Of a DNA stretch of 64,000 nucleotides, positions 40,698 to 59,562 are shown in pieces (position 1 is the stretch's first letter; every line of letters begins with the position of its first letter). Made by a program: the position numbers and the translations under genes. The stretch spans positions 480,001 to 544,000 of the forward strand of contig CAWAHW010000002.1 of NCBI GenBank assembly GCA_963781885.1, given 5' to 3'. Under the pieces are notes generated by a model. The model was not told the DNA's origin. It was given only the letters and a program-made list of their open reading frames with translations, and did not search any database. The stretch is from an uncultured Spirochaetota bacterium. GTDB lineage: Bacteria; Spirochaetota; Spirochaetia; SZUA-6; Fen-1364.

Positions 40698-40714
40698 GGA
40701 CATTTCTAAAGAGT
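40698..40714 (+). promoter_or_regulatory. Conserved 17-bp motif, copy 1 (upstream of the uxaE-like operon)
   Basis: GGACATTTCTAAAGAGT; 29 nt upstream of -10 TACACT (40744-40749, preceded by an extended TG). Confidence 0.8.
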
Positions 40715-43938: not shown

Positions 43939-44793
43939 TCATCCCTTGAGGCCGGTCGTCGCCATTCCCTGGATGATCCGTCTCTGGAATATGTAGTAGA
44001 AAATGACCTGGGGGATCAGGACGATGATGACCGCGCGCATGACGGCCGCCACGTCCATCCCGTACTGCTGCTTGAAGAAGGCCGCCGCGAGCGGGATCGT
44101 GAAATTCCTGATATTGCTCAGGATGACCGATGCCAGCGTCCACTCGTTCCAGGCCCAGATGAAATTGAAGATGATGAGCGTCGTTATCACCGGCGCGATC
44201 AGGGGGGCGACGATCCCGAAGATCAGCTTGGGGAGGCGGCATCCATCCATGATCGCGGCCTCTTCCAGCTCCAGGGGAACCGACTTGAGACCGCCGACGA
44301 AGACAAGCGTGTTGAAGGGCAGCGATCCCGCGATATAGGGAAGAGGGAGGCCGAAGATGCTGTCGATGCCAAGGCCGATTGGCTTCAGCTTGAGCGCGAG
44401 CAGGTAGATCGGGAAAAGGACAATGAAAAGGGGAACCGCATTGCCCATCAGGAAGAGGAAATAGAAGAAGTTGCCGAATGCGGCGTGCCGGTGGTGCAGA
44501 CGGGCGATGGCGAACGAGCTCAGGAAGTTGATCAGGATGCAGCCGATCGTCGTGAGGGAGGCCACGATCACGCTGTTCTTGAACAGCGTGGGCATATGGG
44601 ACTTCGAGAAGGTGTCGGCGTAGAGGGAGAGGTCCCATTTGTTCGGCAGGCTGAGCGGCGCGTTGTAGATTTCGGTGTTTCCCTTGAAGGAGAGGATGAA
44701 GCCCCAGACGAAGGGAAAGATCATGAAGGCGCAGATGATGAGGGAAACGAGGATCAGCAGCAGGCGCGTCGGGATTGTGGTGCCACTCGACAT
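43939..44793 (-). CDS. Carbohydrate ABC permease (MalG type)
   Basis: ELEEAAIMDG, FIWAWNE, QRRIIQG. Confidence 0.92.
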   Translation of the reverse strand: MSSGTTIPTRLLLILVSLIICAFMIFPFVWGFILSFKGNTEIYNAPLSLPNKWDLSLYADTFSKSHMPTLFKNSVIVASLTTIGCILINFLSSFAIARLHHRHAAFGNFFYFLFLMGNAVPLFIVLFPIYLLALKLKPIGLGIDSIFGLPLPYIAGSLPFNTLVFVGGLKSVPLELEEAAIMDGCRLPKLIFGIVAPLIAPVITTLIIFNFIWAWNEWTLASVILSNIRNFTIPLAAAFFKQQYGMDVAAVMRAVIIVLIPQVIFYYIFQRRIIQGMATTGLKG

Positions 44794-44802
44794 GTTCTGC
44801 TC

Positions 44803-45756
44803 CTACGCCTCGACCCGCTTCGCGGTGATCCGCAGGAATCCAATGGAAAACACCATCATGACCAGGAACATGAGCAGCGCGACGGCCGATGCGTAGCCCG
44901 CCCTGCGCTCGGCGAGAAATATGTCGTACAGGAGGGTGCCGATATTGTGCGACTTGAAGTTCGGCTGGCCGTTGGTCAGGATATAGACGGTCTGCATGCT
45001 CTGGATGGCGTTGATGAAGACGTACACCGCGACGATCTTCAATGTCTCCTTGAGCATCGGCAGCGTGATGTAGCGGGTCTTCTGGGCCGAAGAGGCGCCG
45101 TCCATCTTCGCCGCCTCATAGAGCTCGGTCGGTATCAGCTTGAGACCGGCAAGAAAGAGCACCGAATAGAAGCCCAACGCTTTCCAGCTCTCGATGACGG
45201 CCACCGTGTAGGGTGTCAATGTCGGCCCGCCGATCCACTTGAAGGCAAGAAAGCCCATGTGATTGGCCTTGAGGAAGATGTTGAGCAGGCCGATCCCCGG
45301 ATCGACGACGAAGAACCATACGAGCGTGGTGATGATGGGCGATAGGATATAAGGCGTGAAAACCAGGAGCTTCACGACGCCGTTTCCCCGGAAATCCCTG
45401 TTGATGAAGAGCCCCAGCAGGAATGAAACGGGGAGGATGAGGGCAAGCTCGAGCACGGTGATGATGAGCGTATTCTTCAGCGCGATGGAGAGGTGGCCGT
45501 CGCTTGCCATCGATACGAAGTTGGCCACCCCGACAAACTTGCCGGGATAGAAGCTCGACTTGTCCGTGAATGCGATGGCCAGCGAGTAGACGATGGGATA
45601 CAGCACGTAGACGCAGAAAAATGCCAGGGAGGGAAGGAGCAGGAGGAGCTTTATCCACCGCTTGCAGTACATGAACACCGATGTCCTCCTCTGTTCTCCC
45701 GCGGCGGCCATTCGCGAGAGAGCCGAATCCTTGCGGATTCGGCTCTCGTTCATCAA
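44803..45756 (-). CDS. Carbohydrate ABC permease (MalF type)
   Basis: ELYEAAKMDGA, ITLPML, GYASA. Confidence 0.92.
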   Translation of the reverse strand: MMNESRIRKDSALSRMAAAGEQRRTSVFMYCKRWIKLLLLLPSLAFFCVYVLYPIVYSLAIAFTDKSSFYPGKFVGVANFVSMASDGHLSIALKNTLIITVLELALILPVSFLLGLFINRDFRGNGVVKLLVFTPYILSPIITTLVWFFVVDPGIGLLNIFLKANHMGFLAFKWIGGPTLTPYTVAVIESWKALGFYSVLFLAGLKLIPTELYEAAKMDGASSAQKTRYITLPMLKETLKIVAVYVFINAIQSMQTVYILTNGQPNFKSHNIGTLLYDIFLAERRAGYASAVALLMFLVMMVFSIGFLRITAKRVEA

Positions 45757-45775: not shown

Positions 45776-47119
45776 CTATTTCGGCAGCTTGGGGATTACC
45801 TCGTCGATGGCGGCATCCATCTTGGCGAGCTCGCCCGGGATGTCGGCCGCGGTCATGGAGCCGTTCATGAGGCTGTTCTCCAGGTTGCCGCGGATCGTTC
45901 CCCAGCCCTGGGTCCACAGGTCACCGTTGGAACTCCACTGCCAGTAGGGCGCGTAGTCGGAGTTCATAAGACCTGTATAGGACTTATCCTGGATCATCGC
46001 AACCTGCTGCTTCATGATCGGTCCGAGGCCCGACATGTCGATCTTCACGTTCACGGGCATGATCGTGCCGACCTTCAGTGCGAGCTGTGCTCCTTCCGAG
46101 CTGTAGCGCCACTTGTTGAAGGCGACGATGGCCTTGAGCTTGTCCGGATCACTGGCGGCAGTCGCGCCGATCCCGAATGCGTTCCCGACCGACCGGACGA
46201 TCCGCTTCTGGTTGTACTTCTTCGCCACCGGGTCGGTGAAGGCGAAGCCGAAGTTGAACACGTAGTTCTTCTCCAGCGGCTGGCCGATGATCTTGCCCAG
46301 CTGATCGGAGGGAAGGGTGATCATCGCCGCGTTGCCGGCGTTGAACATGGCGCACATCTGGTCGAAGCTCATGGTGGCGTTGTCCTCGGGGAAGGCCCCC
46401 AGGGCGCGCAGCTCCGCCTCGCGGTAGTATGCCTGGCCGAAATCGGCGTCGACGGCCTTCAATGTGTGGTCCTTGAACACCGCCTTGGCCTGTTCCCAGA
46501 TCCCGTACTGCATGAGCCACGCCTGGTAGCCCCAGACCGCCCATCCTTCCTTGGATCCGTACGCGATCGTCACGACGCCGTTCTTCTTGAACGTCGCGAC
46601 GCAGTTCTTGAGCTGATCGAATGTGGTCGGTATCTTCAGTCCGTACTTGTCAAAGAGGGCCTTGTTGTAGACCCATCCCTGGACCTGCATCTCGGTGGGG
46701 AATCCGGCGATCTTGCCGCCCGCGCTGGTGAGGTTGGTCAAGGCGCCTTCCACGAAGGTTGCCTTGAAGGCCGGGTCATAGAAGGGAGTGCAATCGACGA
46801 CCGACGTGGTCCTGTTGAGGAAGTCGACTAGGTGGGTTCCGTTGTCCCAGAACATGTCGGGCATGGAGTTGGACTGGGCCATGATCTCAAGCTTCTGCTG
46901 CAGGGTGTCGTGGTCCACGATCTGGTAATCGACGGAGATGTTGGGGTACTTCTTCATGTAGGTATCGAGTGTCACCCCGACCATGTCCGTTTCCCGGCCG
47001 ATGAAAGTCATGTAGCTGAAGTTTACCTTCTTTGTGGTTCCCTGTGCCTGCGCCCCGACTGTGGCGGAAAGCGTCACAAGGCACAGCAGGACCAAGAGAG
47101 CGGTGACGAGTTTTTTCAC
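45776..47119 (-). CDS. Carbohydrate ABC substrate-binding protein
   Basis: Signal peptide, YNKALFDKYGLKIPTTFDQL. Confidence 0.9.
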   Translation of the reverse strand: MKKLVTALLVLLCLVTLSATVGAQAQGTTKKVNFSYMTFIGRETDMVGVTLDTYMKKYPNISVDYQIVDHDTLQQKLEIMAQSNSMPDMFWDNGTHLVDFLNRTTSVVDCTPFYDPAFKATFVEGALTNLTSAGGKIAGFPTEMQVQGWVYNKALFDKYGLKIPTTFDQLKNCVATFKKNGVVTIAYGSKEGWAVWGYQAWLMQYGIWEQAKAVFKDHTLKAVDADFGQAYYREAELRALGAFPEDNATMSFDQMCAMFNAGNAAMITLPSDQLGKIIGQPLEKNYVFNFGFAFTDPVAKKYNQKRIVRSVGNAFGIGATAASDPDKLKAIVAFNKWRYSSEGAQLALKVGTIMPVNVKIDMSGLGPIMKQQVAMIQDKSYTGLMNSDYAPYWQWSSNGDLWTQGWGTIRGNLENSLMNGSMTAADIPGELAKMDAAIDEVIPKLPK

Positions 47120-47300: not shown

Positions 47301-47452
47301 ATCCTAAATCATCGCCCCCCATTGTCAACTGAGATTTCGCCAGACACTCGATAGAAATGTCCCCTCGCGCTCCGCGCGCGCCGCGCGGGAAGGACATTTC
47401 AATCGAGTCCGCGCGCCGATTCTTGATGACGGCGAGCCTCCGGCATTAAGGT
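47301..47452. promoter_or_regulatory. Divergent promoter region with an inverted pair of 17-bp motifs (copies 2 and 3)
   Basis: ACTCGATAGAAATGTCC (47346-47362) and GGACATTTCAATCGAGT (47392-47408); minus-strand TTGACA-16-TAGGAT (47328..47301); plus-strand TTGATG-18-TAAGGT (47423..47452). Confidence 0.8.
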
Positions 47453-47493: not shown

Positions 47494-48147
47494 ATGGGAA
47501 TGAAAAGGGACGTCCTGGACGCCCTGCACGAAAGCGGCGTCGTCGCCGTCATCCGCACGGAGAATCCACGCGACCTCGCGGCGGTGGCGCGTGCGCTGCA
47601 CGCCGGCGGGGTGCGCTGCGTCGAAATCACGATGACCGTGCCCGGCGCGCTGGACATCATCCGCGACGCCTGCGCCACGCTCTCCGGCATCGACGTGTTC
47701 ATCGGGGCGGGCACGGTGCTCGACGCGGTGAGCGCGCGGGCGGCCATCATCGCGGGGGCCCGGTTCGTCGTGGGTCCCGGCTTCGACCCGGAGATCGTGA
47801 AGACGTGCGCCCTGTACGGCGTCATGAATATGCCGGGCGCCTTCACACCGCAGGAGATCCTCTCCGCCTGGAAGGGCGGTGCGGACGTCGTGAAGGTGTT
47901 TCCGGCCGATCTTGGCGGTCCGGATTACATCAAGACGGTGCGCGAGCCGCTTCCCCAGATATCGCTCCTGCCGACAAAGGGCATCGACTTTTCCACCGCG
48001 GGGGCCTATATCAAGGCAGGTGCCTTTGCCGTCGGGGCGGGCGGCGCGCTGGTGAGCAAGGCGCTTATTGCCGCGGGGGACTACGATCGGATCACCGCCA
48101 ATGCGCGCGAGCTCGCCCGGATCGTGCGCGAGGCGAGGAAAGGGTAG
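47494..48147 (+). CDS. eda: KDPG/KHG aldolase, copy 1
   Basis: EITM, GAGTV, PGAFTPQE, VKVFP. Confidence 0.92.
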   Translation: MGMKRDVLDALHESGVVAVIRTENPRDLAAVARALHAGGVRCVEITMTVPGALDIIRDACATLSGIDVFIGAGTVLDAVSARAAIIAGARFVVGPGFDPEIVKTCALYGVMNMPGAFTPQEILSAWKGGADVVKVFPADLGGPDYIKTVREPLPQISLLPTKGIDFSTAGAYIKAGAFAVGAGGALVSKALIAAGDYDRITANARELARIVREARKG

Positions 48148-48151
48148 GCCG

Positions 48152-49195
48152 ATGAAGCAGGTTGCAACGGACCGCACGGTCGTGCTTTTCGGCGAGCTCA
48201 TGATGCGCCTGTCCACGAAGGGGCACGAGCGGCTCGTGCAGGCGCGCGAGTTCGACGTGATCTACAGCGGCGCGGAGGCGAATCTCGGCGTTGCCCTCAC
48301 CGGCTTCGGCGTGGAAAGCTTCATGGTGTCGAGCGTTCCCGACAACCCCGTCGGGCAGGCCTGCCTGAACTACATGCGACAGTTCGGTCTCAACCTGGAG
48401 CACGTCCGCCGCAATGGCCACCGCCTCGGCATCTACTTCGTGGAGACGGGGGCTGCGCAGAGGCCTTCCACCTTCCTTTACAACAGGGCCGGCAGCTCCA
48501 TCACGGAGTTGCGAAAAGGCGATATCGACTGGGCCCGCATCTTCCAGGGCAAGAGCTGGTTCCATTTCACGGGCATCACTCCCGCGCTTGCAAACAGCGT
48601 CGCCGACATCACCCGCGAGGCCTGCGCGGCGGCGGCAGCGGCGGGCGTGACGGTGAGCTGCGACCTGAACTTCCGCCGCAAGCTCTGGTCCCCGGAGAAG
48701 GCGCGCGCCGTGATAGAAGGGCTCATGGAATACGTTGACGTGCTCTTCACGAACGAGGAGGAGGCGGAGACGGTATTCGGCATTGCGGCACGGGGCAGCA
48801 ACGTGAAAGCGGGCACCATCTCGGCGCATGGATACGAGGACGTCGCGGTACAGCTCAAGGAGCGTTTTCATCTGGGCTATGTCTCCATCACGCTGCGGGA
48901 AAGCATCTCTGCGACGGCGAACAACTGGTCGGGCATGCTCTACGACGGCGCGCGGTTCTACACCAGCCGCACGTACCACATGGACCACATCGTGGATCGC
49001 ATCGGCGGCGGAGACGCCTACTCATCGGGCATCATCTACGGGCTCCTGACGGGTCAGGACCTCCAGGAGAGCGTGGAGTTCGCCGCGGCTGCATCGTGCC
49101 TGAAGCATACAATTCCCGGCGATTTCAACCTCGTCACCTTTGACGAAGTGCTCGCGCTCATGAAGGGCGATGCATCGGGCCGAATACAGCGCTGA
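48152..49195 (+). CDS. kdgK: 2-dehydro-3-deoxygluconokinase (PfkB family), copy 1
   Basis: FGELMMRL, GAEAN, DLNFRRKLW, DRIGGGDA. Confidence 0.9.
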   Translation: MKQVATDRTVVLFGELMMRLSTKGHERLVQAREFDVIYSGAEANLGVALTGFGVESFMVSSVPDNPVGQACLNYMRQFGLNLEHVRRNGHRLGIYFVETGAAQRPSTFLYNRAGSSITELRKGDIDWARIFQGKSWFHFTGITPALANSVADITREACAAAAAAGVTVSCDLNFRRKLWSPEKARAVIEGLMEYVDVLFTNEEEAETVFGIAARGSNVKAGTISAHGYEDVAVQLKERFHLGYVSITLRESISATANNWSGMLYDGARFYTSRTYHMDHIVDRIGGGDAYSSGIIYGLLTGQDLQESVEFAAAASCLKHTIPGDFNLVTFDEVLALMKGDASGRIQR

Positions 49196-49294
49196 AATAA
49201 GTTTTCTGGCGCCAAAAGGCGACGTTTTGCCTATAATTAAAAGATATTTCGTGAAAAAACAGTGAGAATCTCTCGAAAATAATCTTGTTAACAA

Positions 49295-49347
49295 TTGACA
49301 GATGACAGTTAATGATTTATCCTGCTTCCTCGATTGAACAAGTTCCC
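49295..49347 (+). promoter_or_regulatory. Sigma70 promoter of the transposase-like gene with a degenerate motif copy at the predicted start site
   Basis: TTGACA (49295-49300), 17 nt, TATCCT (49318-49323) in AT-rich DNA; CTCGATTGAA (49329-49338) is the reverse complement of 10 nt of motif copy 3. Confidence 0.7.
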
Positions 49348-49381
49348 TTTTTACACGGATGTCCGTGGGGAGGCAGTTGCC

Positions 49382-50542
49382 GTGAGTGAGAACGAGAACA
49401 TGCGTGCAATGATTCTCAACGGTGTGGTGAGCGGCGCCATGTCGCTCGACCAGGCAACGCAGATCCTCAATCTCTCCTATAGGCAGATGAAGAGGGTCTG
49501 GAAGCGTTTCCGCGAAGAAGGCGAGACGGGTCTGGCTCATCGTAACAAAGGTAGGCCTTCAAACAGGGCATTCGTCGATCAGCTCAAGCGCGACATTCTG
49601 CAGAAGTACGCCCGCGTGGGACAAGGCCTGGGGCCGACGCAATTCTCGGATCGCCTTGCGGCTGAAGGCATCTTTGTCGACCATGAGACGCTTCGGCGCT
49701 GGCTGCTGCAGAACGGCGCCTGGAAGCTTTCGCGGAACAGGGCGGTGCGGCCGGTGGAAGTGCGCACGAGCGGCTTCGGAGAGCTCCTCAATCTCGTGTC
49801 CTTCCACGGGTGCTGGCTCGGGGAGACCGTCGCACCCTGCTTCCTGGTCTGTCTGCGCGATGAGGCGACCGGCTACACACTCTGCTCCGCGAGCAGGGAC
49901 GAAACGAGTGAGACCGCCATGCGCCTCCTTCGGGCATGGATCGAGCGCCACGGCATTCCCGCGGGAATCCGCTGCCAGAGGCGTTTCCTCTTCGCGGAGA
50001 ACCGCCACCCGACGCTCGAGCAGCAGCTCTGCGGCGGCGGCGCCCTCACGGCGCTGAGCCGGTCCTTCGATCGGCTGGGCATCGAATCGGGAACGCTGTC
50101 CCCGTCACAGACGAAAGCCATCCTGAACGACATGCTGCCCTTCCTCGACGCCATGAAGGCGATGGTGGCGCGCAGCGGCGCGATCGGCATCGAGCAGACC
50201 ACGGCGTTCCTGCTGGGAGCGGCAGCGGACGAATTGAATGGGAGGTTCGCGGCAGGCCATGCGGAGGCGGACGACTACCACGTGCCGATTGTCGATGGCA
50301 CCGACCTGCGCAGGTTCCTCTGCGTCGACCAGGAGTGCCGCGTCAGCGCGCAGGGCATCGTCGAGCTCGGGCACCGGCGATTCCGCATCATGAACGGGGG
50401 GGCCATGGGCGTAAGGCATCTTCAGCGGGTCGTCGTTTCGGAGTGGCTCGACGGATCGGTGCACATCCTCTGCCAGGGGCGGGAGATCACCTTCCTCGAG
50501 ACCAGGCCGGCGCAACCTTGCATCGATCGTCTGGCAATGTAG
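49382..50542 (+). CDS. ISNCY/IS1202-like transposase-derived protein lacking DDE catalytic residues (putative domesticated DNA-binding regulator)
   Basis: HTH LSYRQMKRVWKRFREEG..GLAHRNKGRPSNR, GPT....L, VDHETLRRWL, FGEL, DEATG, HGIP, C-terminal EWLDGS; expected QxDGS, YxD and GRVER appear as NLVSF, RCQ and AILND; GGAGG RBS. Confidence 0.8.
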   Translation: MSENENMRAMILNGVVSGAMSLDQATQILNLSYRQMKRVWKRFREEGETGLAHRNKGRPSNRAFVDQLKRDILQKYARVGQGLGPTQFSDRLAAEGIFVDHETLRRWLLQNGAWKLSRNRAVRPVEVRTSGFGELLNLVSFHGCWLGETVAPCFLVCLRDEATGYTLCSASRDETSETAMRLLRAWIERHGIPAGIRCQRRFLFAENRHPTLEQQLCGGGALTALSRSFDRLGIESGTLSPSQTKAILNDMLPFLDAMKAMVARSGAIGIEQTTAFLLGAAADELNGRFAAGHAEADDYHVPIVDGTDLRRFLCVDQECRVSAQGIVELGHRRFRIMNGGAMGVRHLQRVVVSEWLDGSVHILCQGREITFLETRPAQPCIDRLAM

Positions 50543-50566
50543 AAATACCAGTCCAAGGAGTCGAAA

Positions 50567-51223
50567 ATGGCGATTCGCTCACAGGAAGTCCTCGCGGCAC
50601 TCGAGGAAACAGGTGTCGTGGCGGTGATCCGGGTCGAAGACCCCGAGGGCCTCGCCGATGTCTCGCGCGCCCTGTGCGCGGGCGGCGTGCGCCTGGTGGA
50701 GATCACGATGACGGTCCCCGGTGCTCTCGCGCTGATCGCCTCGGTGAGCGCATCGCTCGGGAATGCCGTGTTTATCGGCGCCGGCACCGTCCTGGACGCG
50801 GCTGCCGCGCGCATGGCGATACTCGCCGGCGCGCGTTTCGTCGTCGGGCCCAGCTTTGACCCTGACGTCGTGGCCATGTGCAAGCTCTACGACACGCCCG
50901 TCATGCCGGGCTGCCTCACGCCGACGGAGATCGCCGCGGCGTGGAAGGCGGGCGCCGACGTCGTGAAGATCTTCCCCGGCCGGGTGGGCACCCCCGAGTA
51001 TTTCCAGGACCTCAAGGGCCCCTTCCCCCAGGTGAGGATGATGCCCACGGGCAATGTCGACGTCGTGACGACGCCCGCGTACATCAAGGCGGGCGCGGTT
51101 GCCGTCGGCGTCGGAAAAGCGCTCGTCGACCCGCGCGCCATGGCGGCGCGCCAGTACAAGGTCATCACCGACAATGCCATCGCGTTCCGACGGCTCGTGC
51201 AGGACGCGCGGAGCCGCACCTGA
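50567..51223 (+). CDS. eda: KDPG/KHG aldolase, copy 2
   Basis: EITM, GAGTV, PGCLTPTE, VKIFP, PTG. Confidence 0.92.
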   Translation: MAIRSQEVLAALEETGVVAVIRVEDPEGLADVSRALCAGGVRLVEITMTVPGALALIASVSASLGNAVFIGAGTVLDAAAARMAILAGARFVVGPSFDPDVVAMCKLYDTPVMPGCLTPTEIAAAWKAGADVVKIFPGRVGTPEYFQDLKGPFPQVRMMPTGNVDVVTTPAYIKAGAVAVGVGKALVDPRAMAARQYKVITDNAIAFRRLVQDARSRT

Positions 51224-52251
51224 TGGCAAAAAAGGTCGTCCTCTTCGGGGAGCTCCTCATGCGGCTGGCGCCGAAAGGCGTCGACAGGTTCGTGCAGGCG
51301 GAGGAGTTCGACGTCCGCTACACCGGCGCCGAGGCGAACGCCGGTGTGTCGCTCGTCAATTTCGGCATGGAAGCCTATGCCGTATCAAAGGTGCCGGACA
51401 CCGAGATCGGCCAGGCCTGCATCAACTACCTGAGCCGGTTCCGGGTCAACACGGACCACGTGGCGCGCGGCGGGGAGCGGCTGGGCATCTTCTTCCTGGA
51501 GACCGGCGCGGCCCAGCGCGCCTCGAAGATCATCTACGACCGCGGGCACAGCGCCATCCGCGATTCAACACCGTCCGACTACGATTGGGAGCGCATCTGC
51601 GAAGGCAAGGACTGGTTTCATTTCTCCGGCACCGCGCCGGCGCTCGGCGAGGGGGTGCAGAGGGTGCTGGAGGACGGCCTGGTCGTCGCCCGGCGGCGGG
51701 GGCTCACGGTCAGCTGCGATCTGAACTACCGGGCAAAGCTATGGTCGCCGGCCGAGGCCCAGCGCGTGATGACCGGGTTCATGCGCCACGTCGACGTGCT
51801 CATCGGCAACGAGGAGGACGCGGAGAAGGTATTCGGCATCGCGGCGCCCGGCAGCGACGTGGGCAAGGGAAAGATCGTCGGCGACTCCTATCGCCACGTC
51901 GCCGTGGAGCTCGTGCGGCGTTTCGGGTTCCAGAAGGTGGCCACGACCCTGCGGGAGAGCGTTTCCGCGTCCGTGAACGGGTGGGCGGCCATGCTGTCCG
52001 ACGGCACGACGCATGTCACGAGCCGCCGCTACGAGATCGCCCCAATCGTGGATCGGGTGGGCGCCGGCGACTCCTTCACCGGCGGTCTCATCTTTGCGCT
52101 CCTGTCGGGCTACGACCTGCAACGCAGCGTCGATTTCGCCGCGGCAGCATCCTGCCTGAAACATTCGATCGCCGGGGACTTCAATCTCGCTTCCGTCCGG
52201 GAGGTGGAGGCGCTGATCGCCGGTGAAGCGTCGGGAAGGGTGCAGAGATGA
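51223..52251 (+). CDS. kdgK: 2-dehydro-3-deoxygluconokinase (PfkB family), copy 2
   Basis: FGELLMRL, GAEAN, DLNYRAKLW, DRVGAGDSF. Confidence 0.9.
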   Translation: MAKKVVLFGELLMRLAPKGVDRFVQAEEFDVRYTGAEANAGVSLVNFGMEAYAVSKVPDTEIGQACINYLSRFRVNTDHVARGGERLGIFFLETGAAQRASKIIYDRGHSAIRDSTPSDYDWERICEGKDWFHFSGTAPALGEGVQRVLEDGLVVARRRGLTVSCDLNYRAKLWSPAEAQRVMTGFMRHVDVLIGNEEDAEKVFGIAAPGSDVGKGKIVGDSYRHVAVELVRRFGFQKVATTLRESVSASVNGWAAMLSDGTTHVTSRRYEIAPIVDRVGAGDSFTGGLIFALLSGYDLQRSVDFAAAASCLKHSIAGDFNLASVREVEALIAGEASGRVQR

Positions 52252-52327: not shown

Positions 52328-53155
52328 ATGGGCTCGATGGAAGGCATGCGTGTCCTCGTGACAGGGGCGGGCACGGGGATCGGGAAGGGAATCGCGGAAG
52401 AGTTTGCGCACGAAGGGGCAACCGTGGTGCTCCATTATTCGCACAGCTCGGCCGGGGCAATCGCCGCGGCGCACGCCATCGTTGCCGCCGGCGGAAAGGC
52501 GGAGGCGATGCCCGCGGACTTTTCCCGACGCGACGAGGTGCGGGGGCTTGCCGCGCGCGCGCTTTCATTCCTGGGGGGAATCGACGTCCTGGTCAACAAC
52601 GCCGGGGTGTCCCTCACATTGCCCTTCGAGCAGGTCACCGGCGAGCAGTTCGACCTGCTCTATGCCGTGAATGTCAGCGCGCCCTTTTTCCTCACGCAGG
52701 CGCTCCTTCCGCGTCTCTGCGAGTCGAAGAACGCGTCGGTCATCAACCTGAGCTCCATCCACGCCTACGAGGGCGCCCCCGAGTACGCCGTCTACGCGGG
52801 CACGCGCGGTGCCATCCTGGCTTTCACGCGGGAGCTCGCCATCGAGCTCGCACCGCTCGGCATACGGGTGAACGGCATCGCCCCGGGATCGACCAACGTG
52901 GAAAGCCATCGGAAGGTCGCGTCGAGCGCCGAGCTCGAAGCGGAGGGCCGGGGGATACCCGTCGGCAGGCTTGGAACGCCGCAGGACATGGGCAAGGTCG
53001 CCGTATTCCTCGCGTCGGAGGGAGCGCGCTTCATCGTCGGACAGACCATCGTGGTCGACGGCGGCACCATCTCGTGGATGCCGTTCGGGGAGCAGTTCCG
53101 ACGCCGTGCGCCGAAAGAGTACCGCCTGGGCCAGGGCTACGTGCCGGGGATGTAG
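52328..53155 (+). CDS. SDR oxidoreductase
   Basis: TGAGTGIG, NNAG, YAGTR (Arg at the usual Lys), VNGIAPG. Confidence 0.88.
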   Translation: MGSMEGMRVLVTGAGTGIGKGIAEEFAHEGATVVLHYSHSSAGAIAAAHAIVAAGGKAEAMPADFSRRDEVRGLAARALSFLGGIDVLVNNAGVSLTLPFEQVTGEQFDLLYAVNVSAPFFLTQALLPRLCESKNASVINLSSIHAYEGAPEYAVYAGTRGAILAFTRELAIELAPLGIRVNGIAPGSTNVESHRKVASSAELEAEGRGIPVGRLGTPQDMGKVAVFLASEGARFIVGQTIVVDGGTISWMPFGEQFRRRAPKEYRLGQGYVPGM

Positions 53156-54146: not shown

Positions 54147-55292
54147 TCATGACGAAAGCGGGTATCGCCCCGCGTTCCTCACCTCGTCGCACATGGCAAC
54201 GATATTCTGAGGCGGCACATCGGGCTGGATGCAGTGCACGGCCGCGGCGACATAGCCGCCCCCCGGGGCAAGATCGCCGATGCGGCGCCGGACCTCGGCG
54301 CGCACGTCAGCTTCGCTGCCGTGGGGAAGGACGGTCTGGGTATCGATGGCGCCGCAGAAGGAGAGCCGGCCGCCGAACTCCCGTTTCAGACGGGCGGTGT
54401 CGGCGAGGTCCTTTGCCGAGACCTGCACGGGGTTCAGCAGGTCGACACCGACATCGGCCAGGTCCCCGATGAGCGGATAGATGTTGCCGCAGGAATGGAA
54501 GAAGACCTTCGCGCGGGTACCCTCGTGAATCGCCGCGAGCGTCTCCGCCTGGTGGGGCTTGACGAGCCGTCGGTATAGCGCGGGCGCCATGAATGTCGAG
54601 TCCTGCGTGCCCAGGTCATCGCCCGTGAGTGCGATGTCGACAAAGTCTCCCACCTGACGGAAGAGCTCGCGGAGATACGGGATCATGCGGATCTTGAACT
54701 CGTGCATGAGCGCAAGGAAGAAGTCCTCGTCCGCCGCCAGATCCATCAGGCACTCGGAAAGGCCCCGCATGAGGTATGCCTGCTCGAAGAGAGTGACGCC
54801 CGTCATGAGGATGCAGGCTTTGCCGGACTGCTGGATCGCCCGGCAGCGCGCGGCCAGGCCTTCGAAACGGGACGGCGCCGACAGATCGGGCCAGGGGTAA
54901 CGGGGCAGATCCTCAATGCGCGCGTTGCGCAGCGGAGGCTCGATCACCTCGAAGTAGCCGGTGCCCGGGTTGCGCGTCCAGGTGCAGCCCCAGTCGTCGA
55001 CCAGCTCGTCCGGCGAGACGTCGCGGCGAAGCGTGGATGCCGCGGGACCGGGCACGCAGGGGCGGCCGTCCGAGCCCAGGCGCTCCATCACCGCCTCGTC
55101 CATCCACGTGTACTGGAATTGCCGCGATATCCAGCGCAGGGGACCCGGCTCGATGCCAAGGTGCCTCGCAAGACGCGGGTAGCCGGGCCCCAGGACCGTG
55201 GTGGCACCCGACGTTCCGATGAAGAGAGGGACCCGGTCCGGCTCCTCGTGATTCAGCGCCATCGCCACGCGTTCGCGCGACGTCATGCCCAT
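54147..55292 (-). CDS. Uroporphyrinogen decarboxylase/MtaA-like protein
   Basis: MTSRERV..ALNHEEPDRVP, GDDLGTQ, FHSCG, LNPVQ, HCIQPDVP. Confidence 0.88.
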   Translation of the reverse strand: MGMTSRERVAMALNHEEPDRVPLFIGTSGATTVLGPGYPRLARHLGIEPGPLRWISRQFQYTWMDEAVMERLGSDGRPCVPGPAASTLRRDVSPDELVDDWGCTWTRNPGTGYFEVIEPPLRNARIEDLPRYPWPDLSAPSRFEGLAARCRAIQQSGKACILMTGVTLFEQAYLMRGLSECLMDLAADEDFFLALMHEFKIRMIPYLRELFRQVGDFVDIALTGDDLGTQDSTFMAPALYRRLVKPHQAETLAAIHEGTRAKVFFHSCGNIYPLIGDLADVGVDLLNPVQVSAKDLADTARLKREFGGRLSFCGAIDTQTVLPHGSEADVRAEVRRRIGDLAPGGGYVAAAVHCIQPDVPPQNIVAMCDEVRNAGRYPLSS

Positions 55293-55317
55293 TTGTGTCT
55301 CCTCTCCCCGCGCCGGC

Positions 55318-56445
55318 CTAGTAGGTCCCCATGGCAAGGCCCTTGTCCACGAAGTGCCGGTAGGTGGGGTAATCGACAAGGCTCGACACGCTGTGGTCCA
55401 CCTGCAGGATGTACCCGCTGCCGGCCATTGCTCCGGGAAGCTTGCGTGAAAGCTCCGCATCGACCACGGAAAGGTCATTCGTCTCCAGGGTCCGCGCATC
55501 CATGCCGCCGATCAGCGCGATCCTGTCCCCCACGTCCTTCTTGATCTTCAGCAGATCCATGCCGGCCTTCGTCTCGATCGGCTGGAGGCAGTCGATGCCC
55601 GCCTCCAGGAGGGACGGCAGCAGCGCTTCAACGAAGCCGTCGCAGTGGAGGATCACGGGAAGCCCCCGGCTGTGCGCGAAGTCGAAGAGTCTCTTGTGCG
55701 CGGGAAAAACGATCTGGCGATACATCGCGGGAGACATGAAGGGCTTGTTCTTGAACCCCAGGTCATCCCACACCCAGAGGCCATCGGGCAGGCCTTCTTT
55801 CGCGAAGAGTTGCTCAAGCAACCGGATCGTGACCGTGGCAAAGAGGTCGGCCATCTCGGTTACCCATGGCTCGTCGAGCGCCATCCCCATGAGCAGGTAC
55901 TCGTGCCCGCACATGGGTGACATGAGGTCGAAGGCGCCGACGACCCCGCAGGAGAGAAAGAGCTCCTGCCGGGCGCATTTCTCCCTCATCTGCCGGTAGC
56001 GGTCGGAGCGGATGCGGCGGGAATCCAGGCTGAGATTCGTGAGGTGCGGCTTGATGTGCTCCTCCCACCCCGCCCGGTCGCGCACCGTGAAGTCAACGTG
56101 CTCGGGAGCGCCCGACCCGTTCTTCAGCCAGCGCAGGAAGGCGCCGTTTCCGTCGCGGATCAGCTTTGCCGTGTCCGTTTCCTCCACGACGGCTTGCCCG
56201 GCGTCAAGGTCGGCCACCAGCTCCAGCACATTGCCCGGCATGGGAGTGATTTCCCCGCTTGTGCGACGGACGTCCAGGCCGAAATGATCGCTCACGTCCT
56301 CAGGCGCCTTGTACCAGCCCTGAGCGCACCACGTGTCGGCCGTCTCCCGCCAGAAGACTTCGAAGAGACCCACCCTGTCCACGGGCTGATGCTTCAGGAT
56401 CCTCGAGATGCGCTCCCTGCTCGTGAGGGGGGAAGCCTTTTTCAT
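55318..56445 (-). CDS. Uroporphyrinogen decarboxylase/MtaA-like protein
   Basis: TSRERI, WDDLG, LHCDG, LQPIE.KAGMD, DHSV. Confidence 0.88.
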   Translation of the reverse strand: MKKASPLTSRERISRILKHQPVDRVGLFEVFWRETADTWCAQGWYKAPEDVSDHFGLDVRRTSGEITPMPGNVLELVADLDAGQAVVEETDTAKLIRDGNGAFLRWLKNGSGAPEHVDFTVRDRAGWEEHIKPHLTNLSLDSRRIRSDRYRQMREKCARQELFLSCGVVGAFDLMSPMCGHEYLLMGMALDEPWVTEMADLFATVTIRLLEQLFAKEGLPDGLWVWDDLGFKNKPFMSPAMYRQIVFPAHKRLFDFAHSRGLPVILHCDGFVEALLPSLLEAGIDCLQPIETKAGMDLLKIKKDVGDRIALIGGMDARTLETNDLSVVDAELSRKLPGAMAGSGYILQVDHSVSSLVDYPTYRHFVDKGLAMGTY

Positions 56446-57533
56446 GGTGTTCGATCTCCTCTTTTTCGTGTCAGGGACGGCGATGCCCCCATCATGCGCG
56501 CGGCGAGGTGCTCGATGGGTGTTCGCGGTCCCCGGAAAAATCGCACGGTGCTCACGTCGTCGTACCGGTTTCTGCCGGTGTCCCCGCCGATGGCGGGCGC
56601 GTGATACTCCAGCTCGCTGAAGCTGCCCAGGGCCGCATTGTTCACGGCGCATGCCTGCACGGCGCAGGCGGGCGGACCGGATCGCGGCGTGTCGATGTAG
56701 AGGAGACCCGGGTCCACCGCGAAATCCCGCACGATGAGATCGGCGCGCCCGCCGTTCCCGTGCAGGTAGCCCACGCGACCCGTGACCGATTCAGGGGGCA
56801 GCCCGATCTTCTTGTCTCCCTGTCCCCGCATCGCCCACTGGACGAGCGCCTGCTGCCGCCCCACGTCCTCCGCGGGGATGAGACCGAAAAAAAGGACCGG
56901 TTCGGGGCGATCTTTCACGCCGAAGAGCATCACCCCGCCGTGGGGAAGCTGCAGGAGGTTCCAGAGCCCCACGGGGGTGCGCGGCGCGAGCTGCGTGACC
57001 TCGAGGGTGCAGCGCAGGGTGTAGCCGCAGGACAGGATCCCCTGCACCGGCAGATCGTTGCGCACGGCATCCGGGTCCATCGCTTCGACGCTTTTTGAAA
57101 GCGACAGCCCGACATCCTCGGCTGTGCGAAACGAGTGGAGGGAGAAGGAGGTGGACATGACCAGGCGTGTCGCCTCCCGGCGGCAGGTGAAGCTGCCGGG
57201 ATCGAATACGCGGGGCTGGAAGTAGCCTTCCTCCCTTGGGTAGCGCGGGAGGAAGAAATCCGCTTCGGGTGCAATCCAAGTGCGGTCACCGCCGGTATTG
57301 CACCATGCGCCTGATTCGAAGAGACGGCGCGCGCTGTCCGTCCGGTCCAGCGCGGAATTGTTCCAGAGGAAGCCCTCCTCCTCGGTTCCGGGAAAGACGC
57401 CCAGCACGCGCGCCCCATGGGGGAGCACGACGACGCGTGCGCCGTCCGGTGCACGGAGGATCTCGGCGGGCTTGCCTGCCTCGGCCAGCCGCGCGGCCAG
57501 GGCGGCGGTAGCCCCGTCAGACTTTGACGCCAT
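56442..57533 (-). CDS. Conserved hypothetical protein (galactose mutarotase-like fold, DUF6786-like)
   Basis: GARVLG, GGDRTWIAPE, FSELEYHAP; overlaps both neighbours in the operon. Confidence 0.6.
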   Translation of the reverse strand: MASKSDGATAALAARLAEAGKPAEILRAPDGARVVVLPHGARVLGVFPGTEEEGFLWNNSALDRTDSARRLFESGAWCNTGGDRTWIAPEADFFLPRYPREEGYFQPRVFDPGSFTCRREATRLVMSTSFSLHSFRTAEDVGLSLSKSVEAMDPDAVRNDLPVQGILSCGYTLRCTLEVTQLAPRTPVGLWNLLQLPHGGVMLFGVKDRPEPVLFFGLIPAEDVGRQQALVQWAMRGQGDKKIGLPPESVTGRVGYLHGNGGRADLIVRDFAVDPGLLYIDTPRSGPPACAVQACAVNNAALGSFSELEYHAPAIGGDTGRNRYDDVSTVRFFRGPRTPIEHLAARMMGASPSLTRKRGDRTP

Positions 57534-59323: not shown

Positions 59324-59384
59324 ACACTATTCCAACAGCCCCGAATGTCAACGGACGGCCCGCCCGCACTCTATAGAAATGTCC
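59324..59384 (-). promoter_or_regulatory. Conserved 17-bp motif, copy 4, plus sigma70 promoter of the FAH operon
   Basis: Minus strand GGACATTTCTATAGAGT (59384..59368), 16 nt, TTGACA (59351..59346), 16 nt, TAGTGT (59329..59324). Confidence 0.8.
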
Positions 59385-59562
59385 CTCTGGTTCAGGCAGC
59401 TCACCGCATTCCACGGTGTTGACAGCTGCTCCGCATTCGTCGACATTCGAAAGGCTCCAAACGGCCCTCGCGCGGGCCCCATGGACAAGATACGTAATCC
59501 GGTCCCGGCCGCCACGCGGCGCGGCATGCCGGGATGCGTGAGGGCAGGGAAAGGAGACCGGC

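Follow-up and report, generated by a model that had tools for sequence, protein, structure and literature searches.

What becomes of a transposase that has kept its fold and lost its catalytic residues? The question is raised by an open reading frame (ORF), hereafter X, at 49382-50542 on the + strand of a 64-kb window, by which we mean the whole stretch of 64,000 nucleotides analysed (positions 480,001 to 544,000 of contig CAWAHW010000002.1, from an uncultured Spirochaetota bacterium); coordinates are those of the window unless another sequence is named, and the 4.64-Mb genome that carries it is called G000. A first-pass annotation of this DNA had read X as an IS1202/ISNCY transposase homologue without the DDE triad, maintained for a non-catalytic role rather than decaying as an insertion sequence (IS). 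We propose, with a probability that we put at about 0.7, that X, once a transposase, now acts as a DNA-binding regulator on operators that have arisen from IS ends.

The frame runs from a first TTG at 49334, or from the GTG at 49382, to the stop codon at 50540-50542. The GTG start is shared with the orthologues and preceded by a GGAGG-like site, and from it 386 amino acids can be read without a stop, as first annotated. Residues 11-371 of the product match positions 2-364 of the 368 in the NCBIfam profile NF033594 (ISNCY family transposase) at 156.9 bits (E 7.8e-46), a score under the curated cut-off of 250. Pfam returned only families of the helix-turn-helix (HTH) type, at the N-terminus, and no rve domain, with HTH_28 (30.8 bits, cut-off 25) and HTH_29 (29.5 bits, cut-off 28.1) at residues 8-61, and HTH_32 at residues 38-108 just short of its cut-off. 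These HTH matches are of transposase type, and NCBIfam matched transposase families only, so that X is not a sugar-acid regulator of a classical type (IclR-type KdgR, LacI or GntR). A PDB sequence search gave no match up to E 10. The AlphaFold2 (AF2) model (mean predicted local distance difference test, pLDDT, 81.5) has helices at residues 3-110 and keeps the strand and helix order of an RNase H-like fold, and its best Foldseek matches in the PDB are IstA, TnsB, MuA and retroviral integrases (E 2e-13 to 1e-5). From ORF, profile, alignment and model we assign to this DDE-less homologue two HTH domains (HTH1 and HTH2, residues ~1-112), an RNase H-like core (~131-240), a helical part (241-295) and a C-terminal beta domain (296-375); the Pfam matches and the domain order of the model bear out the earlier statement that the HTHs and the beta domain are kept.

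The active site is lost at all three positions, exactly as the first-pass annotation had it. In an alignment with DDE-intact homologues, FGELVQMDGS has become FGELLNLVSF, with the Asp replaced by V139; ALYTDKKN has become GIRCQRRF, with the second Asp replaced by Q199; and SPQAKGRVER has become SPSQTKAILND, with the Glu replaced by N249. These positions hold D, D and E in 77 of 77 live homologues, and in the AF2 model V139 lies on beta-1, Q199 after beta-4 and N249 on the next helix. Q255, which is invariant in the live homologues (77/77), is variable in the clade of dead relatives described below and is L in X, while the first D of a conserved DD pair is kept in all 40 dead-clade rows, X included (D160), and the second is E (E161 in X) in 34 of the 40. 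Given the loss of the triad, X should be unable to cut or join DNA.

The surroundings of X do not resemble an insertion sequence either. Only short, chance-level repeats occur nearby and no flanking direct repeat is found among the repeat families, in keeping with the lack of IS ends reported earlier; the tip and binding motifs of live relatives gave 0 matches at ≤1 mismatch in 49000-50800. A 16-nt inverted repeat around X (49321-49336 and 50598-50613) was considered as an IS end and rejected, its right arm lying inside the downstream gene eda2 and the repeat being unlike live ends. X is single-copy, with 1 match in G000 when all 8 first-look candidates were scored (copy-number and motif counts for G000 exclude 16,000 bases reading N), and its GC content at third codon positions (GC3) is host-like at 0.81.

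Among the 120 homologues listed, 77 have D, D and E and 43 do not, 42 of the latter lacking all three and the remaining one, P0075, being a fragment that covers two of the catalytic sites, both lost. The best 150 representatives at 50% clustering comprise 112 that keep the triad, 23 without it and 15 that are partial. In a tree of 94 rows, from which P0037 (with a frameshift-like stretch), P0075 (as a fragment) and the listed live proteins beyond 31 sampled by hand were left out, X falls in a monophyletic DDE-less clade of 42 rows (SH-aLRT 100, stem 0.68 changes per column) that spans 37-86% identity and has spirochaete insertion sequences among its nearest live neighbours. Phylogeny had been suggested as a check on the original reading, and it places X in a clade of DDE-less homologues, which in the genus of X are single-copy and lie beside metabolic genes. 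No stop or frameshift was seen in clade members read from DNA; P0037, outside the tree, is possibly frameshifted.

The coding sequence of X is under strong constraint. Between G000 and an 86%-identical orthologue the ratio of nonsynonymous to synonymous substitution rates (dN/dS) is 0.107 at dS 0.68, and four neighbouring enzyme genes compared between G000 and the same relative give 0.05-0.13. Across the domains the overall range is 0.05-0.23, with the two HTHs at 0.058 and 0.053, the dead core at 0.088, the helical part at 0.195 and the C-terminal beta domain at 0.137. Residues have also become newly conserved in the clade, namely R197 (32 of 40 rows), C198 (34), R200 (33), R201 (35) and H209 (29), together with the clade-specific D305 and T307 (40/40 each) and R310 (37/40), and at several of these positions other residues are invariant among the live proteins. 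The HTH region is the part of X closest to live transposases (45% mean identity vs 23-36% for the other domains), which fits a retained DNA specificity. By contrast, where copies in related genomes are truly decaying, their frames contain stop codons, and most of those still spanning the catalytic sites retain D, D and E. Monophyly, dN/dS, the synteny described below, host-like GC3 and the contrast with decaying copies all speak for the selection on a non-catalytic role that the first-pass annotation had favoured over IS decay, and we have little doubt that X is a domesticated transposase.

Synteny and distribution tie X to a small set of metabolic genes. In a 401-genome sample of the phylum only G000 scored ~597 bits, the next best matches reaching ≤332 bits and belonging to multi-copy genes that keep the DDE triad. 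When 92 genomes of the order were searched, a full-length high-scoring copy was found once each in G000, G453, G462 and G468, and in G463 residues 1-111 alone could be read, at a contig end. All five carriers belong to one genus of 21 genomes. The order kdgK1-X-(eda2)-kdgK2-SDR (SDR, short-chain dehydrogenase/reductase) is whole in G000, G453, G462 and G468 and is split over two contig ends in G463. Across three loci the identities are 86, 54 and 51% for X, 94, 84 and 84% for kdgK1, and 94, 73 and 78% for kdgK2; given its lower identities, X evolves faster than its neighbours and is still constrained. The other 16 genomes of the genus are without orthologues of kdgK1, kdgK2 and X together, and the module is therefore accessory; no "empty site" could be found in the genus genomes that lack X, because the kdgK1 and kdgK2 orthologues are missing there too. 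A distant member, a 40%-identical homologue, occurs in a Treponemataceae metagenome-assembled genome (MAG), G492, where an ABC-transporter gene is oriented divergently from it and an aldehyde:ferredoxin oxidoreductase gene overlaps with it; the 69 genomes of that family have no other dead copy. A scan of metagenome contigs gave, among the matches listed, only DDE-intact relatives (≤37% identity) and none from the dead clade.

There are other DDE-less forms as well. Eight tree rows, from a different genus within the order, make up a second clade; one common origin for every dead form is present in the best tree with a support of just 72.9, and we do not consider it established. Members of the second clade (loci L111-L114, L120-L123, L125, L126, L213-L216 and L218 of genomes G479-G482) show the triad replacements F/E/K, G/G/R or Q, I/D/Q and V/D/R, and each genome holds 2-4 diverged DDE-less paralogues, some in tandem and several at contig ends. 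In G481 and G482 a tandem DDE-less pair follows a gene for a BcrAD/BadFG-type CoA-enzyme activase, and one further DDE-less copy in the group lies between two hybrid histidine kinases. A very divergent homologue in G305 (L092 / L217), with T/S/N at the triad positions and a branch of 2.5 changes per column that leaves its tree placement unsure, is flanked by GNAT-acetyltransferase and HD/PAS-domain genes.

A candidate for the DNA that X may recognise comes from the ends of its live relatives. In multi-copy genomes (2-10 copies each) the live elements are 1.3-1.6 kb long, with TGT(C/T)(G/A)AAAC tips, 16-17-bp target duplications and two subterminal repeats per end that finish in ...AAATGTC(A/C)CC. 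These tips, repeats and duplications fit the ISTde1 subgroup as described in the IS1202 preprint (10.1101/2022.12.17.520857), and the TGT tips and duplications of the live relatives uphold the original IS1202/ISNCY family assignment. We wrote the repeat as a ~17-nt pattern, ACTC(G/T)(A/T)T(A/T)GAAATGTCC, allowing ≤2 mismatches in live loci and ≤1 in genomes of the genus, with the reversed pattern as control. Of 93 live loci, 79 have it ≤250 nt from their transposase ORF; sites this near to an ORF number 196, vs 3 in the far larger remainder. The 17-nt motif is thus a subterminal repeat of live IS relatives. Live ISTde1-type elements with 6-10 near-identical copies per genome and clean 16-bp duplications were seen at L006-L010 and L018 (a Hydrogenedentes MAG) and at L037-L046.

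The same motif is found around X, in a genome in which we found 0 live copies and 0 full IS ends. G000 has 7 sites vs 0 for the reversed control, 6 of them within 16 kb of X; the window has 4, vs 0.00 in 100 shuffles; and the core 9-mer of the motif occurs 7 times in 35 kb vs 0.69 expected from its density in the genome. The sites are located in gaps ahead of metabolic genes. One, ACTCTTTAGAAATGTCC at 40698-40714 (-), lies ~46 nt before the candidate ATG (40760) of a UxaE-like epimerase gene. Two more lie in an element of ~105 nt at 47323-47429 that resembles a relic of a miniature inverted-repeat transposable element (MITE), between a leftward operon that begins with the gene for the solute-binding protein (SBP) of an ABC sugar transporter and the rightward eda1 operon. 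Its left site, ACTCGATAGAAATGTCC, at 47346-47362 (+), and its inverted right site, at 47392-47408 (-), form a 17-nt inverted repeat with 94% complementarity. Sixteen nucleotides outside the left site stands a tip-like TGTCAAC (47323-47329), whose reverse complement, TTGACA, is the predicted SBP -35 hexamer, and 14 nt outside the right site stands TTGATG (47423-47428), a possible eda1 -35. The sites of this relic are conserved in the loci L002 and L003 (the latter from G468), the 47346-47408 pair being almost invariant among G000, L002 and L003 while the flanks have diverged. A target duplication was sought around the relic; the flanks match weakly by eye and we make no claim for it. A second MITE-like relic, at 59342-59449, fills the gap between leftward genes for a fumarylacetoacetate (FAA)-hydrolase-family protein and a 2-hydroxyacid dehydrogenase and a rightward DUF386 gene, with inverted tips GAATGTCAAC (59342-59353) and GTCGACATTC (59438-59449) and a site, ACTCTATAGAAATGTCC, at 59368-59384 (+). 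At both relics the site centre would fall near -61 of the predicted leftward promoter, a position like that used by class-I activators. Two further sites lie beyond the end of the window, at contig positions 544183 and 545332, and the seventh is on another contig, ahead of genes for ketol-acid reductoisomerase (KARI)-like and xylose-isomerase-like proteins.

Across the genus, motif and gene occur together. The X-carrying genomes have 7, 7, 2, 3 and 9 sites, and of the 16 without X, 14 have 0 and two have 1, with the reversed control at 0 in all 21. In G468, 7 of 9 sites lie within 40 kb on the contig of X, and in G462 both lie within ~10 kb. The orphan copies in X-less genomes (G461:C145:1583-1599 and G465:C4:104630-104646) may have been left behind by an island since lost or by an old element. 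In G492, searched with a looser pattern, there are 15 sites vs 4 for the control, and seven of them, including all four exact matches, lie 2-28 kb from its X homologue; given that the genus genomes are kin and that G492 belongs to another family, it is the better replicate. The four AT-rich genomes that carry the second dead clade show no more matches to the motif than to the reversed control.

X itself appears to be transcribed from its own promoter. A promoter-like region at 49285-49323 (+) consists of the palindrome TTGTTAACAA (49285-49294), which directly abuts a -35 hexamer TTGACA (49295-49300), a 17-nt spacer and a -10 hexamer TATCCT (49318-49323). The arrangement TTGACA-17-TAnnnT is conserved in 4 of 4 orthologues and ranks first among + strand promoter matches over 6.4 kb, and the 15-mer TGTTAACA(A/G)TTGACA is invariant in the 4 orthologues while the rest of the upstream spacer has diverged; this 15-mer is unique in the window and in the G000 genome. 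It would be speculation to derive the upstream 15-mer TGTTAACAATTGACA from an old IS tip, as it is genome-unique and only loosely like live tips, and we set the idea aside. The eda2 ATG at 50567 is set off from the X stop codon by 24 nt (50543-50566, +) that include AAGGAG, the ribosome-binding site of eda2, just as the first-pass annotation had described, and the gene after X is on the same strand in each of the 5 fully read loci, 17-31 nt away or overlapping. The conserved promoter and the close next gene agree with the earlier proposal that X is the first gene of an operon. This putative operon continues with eda2 (50567-51223, +), for a KDPG/KHG (2-keto-3-deoxy-6-phosphogluconate/2-keto-4-hydroxyglutarate) aldolase (TIGR01182, 172.9 bits, cut-off 156); kdgK2 (51223-52251, +), for a PfkB-family 2-keto-3-deoxy-sugar-acid kinase, whose ATG overlaps the eda2 stop by one base; and an SDR oxidoreductase gene (52328-53155, +), the last conserved gene of X-(eda2)-kdgK2-SDR. 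G468 has no eda2, and kdgK2 follows X directly there.

Upstream of X lies a paralogous pair, eda1 (47494-48147) and kdgK1 (48152-49195), together 47494-49195 (+) and 56-60% identical to eda2 and kdgK2. In G468 the eda1 orthologue (L003:4137-4788) is matched in two pieces, residues 1-83 in one frame and 84-217 in another, which looks like a frameshift or an error of sequencing. At 49196-49235, past the stop codon of kdgK1, a short GC stem with ACGTTTTG after it shows partial conservation in the closest orthologue; this could act as a weak terminator that sets X off from eda1-kdgK1, and is not among the calls of our terminator scan. The SBP gene (45776-47119, -) and its permease genes (43939-45756) are transcribed away from the 47.3-kb relic. 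The neighbourhood thus holds the UxaE-like epimerase, SDRs, the ABC sugar transporter and the two eda-kdgK pairs, and in addition a DapA-family lyase, URO-D-like proteins, the FAA-hydrolase-family protein, the 2-hydroxyacid dehydrogenase and DUF386. Three paralogous URO-D-family genes lie in this sugar-acid island at 54147-56652 (-), with further copies in orthologous loci, including L223:228-1301 (+); it is unlikely that they serve haem synthesis.

We envisage the following mechanism. The ancestor would have been an IS1202-family transposase of ISTde1 type, of which X keeps the whole fold without the capacity to cut or join DNA. X would recognise the ancestral ~17-nt subterminal repeat, most likely through its two N-terminal HTH domains, and the repeats, seeded upstream of operons as IS ends or MITEs, would now be operators within a regulon for sugar acids. 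X, expressed as the leading gene of X-eda2-kdgK2-SDR from a conserved sigma-70-type promoter of its own, would occupy these repeats and so govern the transcription of an island for catabolism of the 2-keto-3-deoxygluconate (KDG)/uronate type. The constrained dead core and C-terminal domain probably hold an oligomer together, and the basic residues R197, R200, R201 and H209 could, speculatively, contact DNA or an anionic effector. Both the binding of X to these sites and the transcriptional control that would result are what we infer from the sequences. A more complete picture, to which we give slightly better than even odds, is that of an entire transposon-derived circuit, in which the dead IS1202-family transposase is the transcription factor, MITE-like ancestral-end operators also donate outward -35 hexamers, the ~25-kb sugar-acid island is one regulon, and the conserved basic patch now at the former active site might detect an anionic effector of the sugar-acid kind, for instance KDG or KDPG.

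Several observations weigh against the proposal that X is a regulator acting on IS-end-type operators. The spacing of the site pair is 29 nt in G000 and 5 nt in L003, and a spacing so variable does not fit one rigid dimer operator. The distances from site to gene are mixed, some sites lying 28-46 nt before an ATG, and the promoter of X itself has no end-type site and carries a different conserved palindrome. The occurrence of X is patchy (5 of 21 genomes of its genus, 1 of 69 in the family of G492), and its co-occurrence with the motif in the genus could reflect co-inheritance of one accessory island among kin, which leaves G492 as the only clearly independent replicate of motif clustering. 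That no second HTH regulator turned up among the ORFs tested from 36 to 63 kb speaks for X, with the reservation that gene calls were heuristic and small regulators could escape. Lastly, 29 of 40 dead-clade members have an acidic residue one position past the lost Glu (D250 in X), which we judge unable to rebuild a triad without the two Asp.

Could X simply be a dead copy on its way to loss, its frame open by chance or because its translation aids expression of eda2? Homology to transposases, the lost catalytic residues and the patchy distribution are what such a copy would show. Yet every domain is constrained, at a dN/dS of 0.107 with dS as high as 0.68; the clade has diverged to 37-86% identity over 42 rows without a stop in the members read from DNA; residues have become newly conserved; synteny holds in five genomes; copies elsewhere that are truly decaying contain stops; and coupled translation would keep a frame open without keeping its amino-acid sequence. 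As far as sequence can show, decay is refuted, and we give it hardly any weight. A domesticated X might instead defend its host as an inhibitor of transposition or an immunity factor, a dominant-negative binder of ISTde1-type ends that blocks mobile relatives and regulates no gene. Truncated or inactive forms of transposases repress transposition in other elements, and the HTH region of X, and with it probably the end-binding specificity, is kept. In G000, however, there is neither a live relative nor a full IS end that X could repress, each site is a single conserved copy ahead of metabolic operons, and X shares its synteny, and its gain or loss, with catabolic genes, all of which makes this role improbable.

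Two further possibilities are somewhat less remote, although we consider each of them unlikely. X might be an architectural or pairing protein that bridges or loops DNA, or recruits recombination or replication factors, with transcription not its primary business. Transposases of this fold form paired-end complexes, the closest structural matches of X are transpososomes, and its sites are paired at variable spacing and spread over ~25 kb, all as such a protein would have it; against this, the sites stand in fixed orientation ahead of the starts of + strand genes, two promoters have them 15-16 nt outside a -35 hexamer, and the whole set precedes functionally related catabolic operons. Alternatively, gene and motif might be unlinked in function, the sites being inert MITE relics or the operators of another factor and X acting through its dead core by binding a metabolite or an enzyme partner. 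The purifying selection on the core, the basic patch gained at the former active site and the different palindrome at the promoter of X could all be so explained, and island co-inheritance could account for the genus profile. Harder to reconcile with it are that the motif is specifically the end repeat of the transposase lineage of X, that it clusters beside a 40%-identical homologue in another family, and that the sites are conserved while the flanking DNA diverges. We therefore favour the transposase-derived regulator with operators from IS ends.

With the IS1202 family, and with its ISTde1 subgroup in particular, X shares homology over its full length at ~35% identity and the order of HTH, RNase H-like core and C-terminal domain. 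It lacks the DDE triad, the Q that follows the E, terminal repeats and a target duplication, and differs further in being single-copy, in its fixed synteny and in a codon usage like that of the host. X descends from the IS1202/ISTde1 family without being a working member of it. As an immobile transposase descendant under purifying selection, with dispersed end-derived sites near genes, it is like the eukaryotic FHY3/FAR1 proteins, which come from Mutator-like elements. SETMAR, in its relation to Hsmar1 ends, is likewise said to be a transposase-derived factor that binds ancestral end sequences. Unlike these, X is bacterial, comes from another superfamily (IS1202/IS481-like), belongs to a compact operon island and is known here from sequence alone.

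Among bacteria, TldR proteins are RNA-guided transcription factors derived from TnpB, a nuclease encoded by transposons (PMC10705468). X and TldR are alike in being bacterial, a transposon enzyme having been domesticated into a regulator, in the case of X a putative one. TldR, whose active site is reportedly inactivated, is RNA-guided and derives from TnpB with its RuvC fold; X, by contrast, would be a protein-only DNA binder from a DDE transposase, with relics of IS ends as its candidate operators. SfsB, a homologue of the Mu Ner protein, acts on maltose genes and represents a mobile-element regulator recruited by the host, as set out in a 2022 review of mobile-element recruitment in prokaryotes (PMC8987985). 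X is like SfsB in that a mobile-element DNA-binding protein (for X, putatively so) has been recruited to host carbon metabolism, and differs in being a whole transposase, regulators of the SfsB type being small dedicated HTH proteins. The review names HTH regulators that come from phages and from antitoxins, and the term "DDE" is absent from it. In full-text literature searches, whose coverage leaves out most subscription journals, we found no published DDE-less IS1202/ISNCY homologue acting as a regulator, nor any account of this family.

The step from transposase to transcription factor, with binding sites seeded by transposon ends, is a textbook route to regulatory networks in eukaryotes. 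To our knowledge the same route is hardly documented for bacterial DDE transposases. At this locus both halves of a candidate circuit can be read, a dead transposase and the co-occurring IS-end-type sites before operons; the scatter of these sites through the gene island is what is new here relative to the first-pass annotation, and it offers the most concrete mechanism that we can suggest. The clade has many diverged members for comparison, with 23 DDE-less proteins among the best 150 representatives. If the proposal is right, X would represent a new family of bacterial regulators, whose members annotation pipelines now label "transposase".

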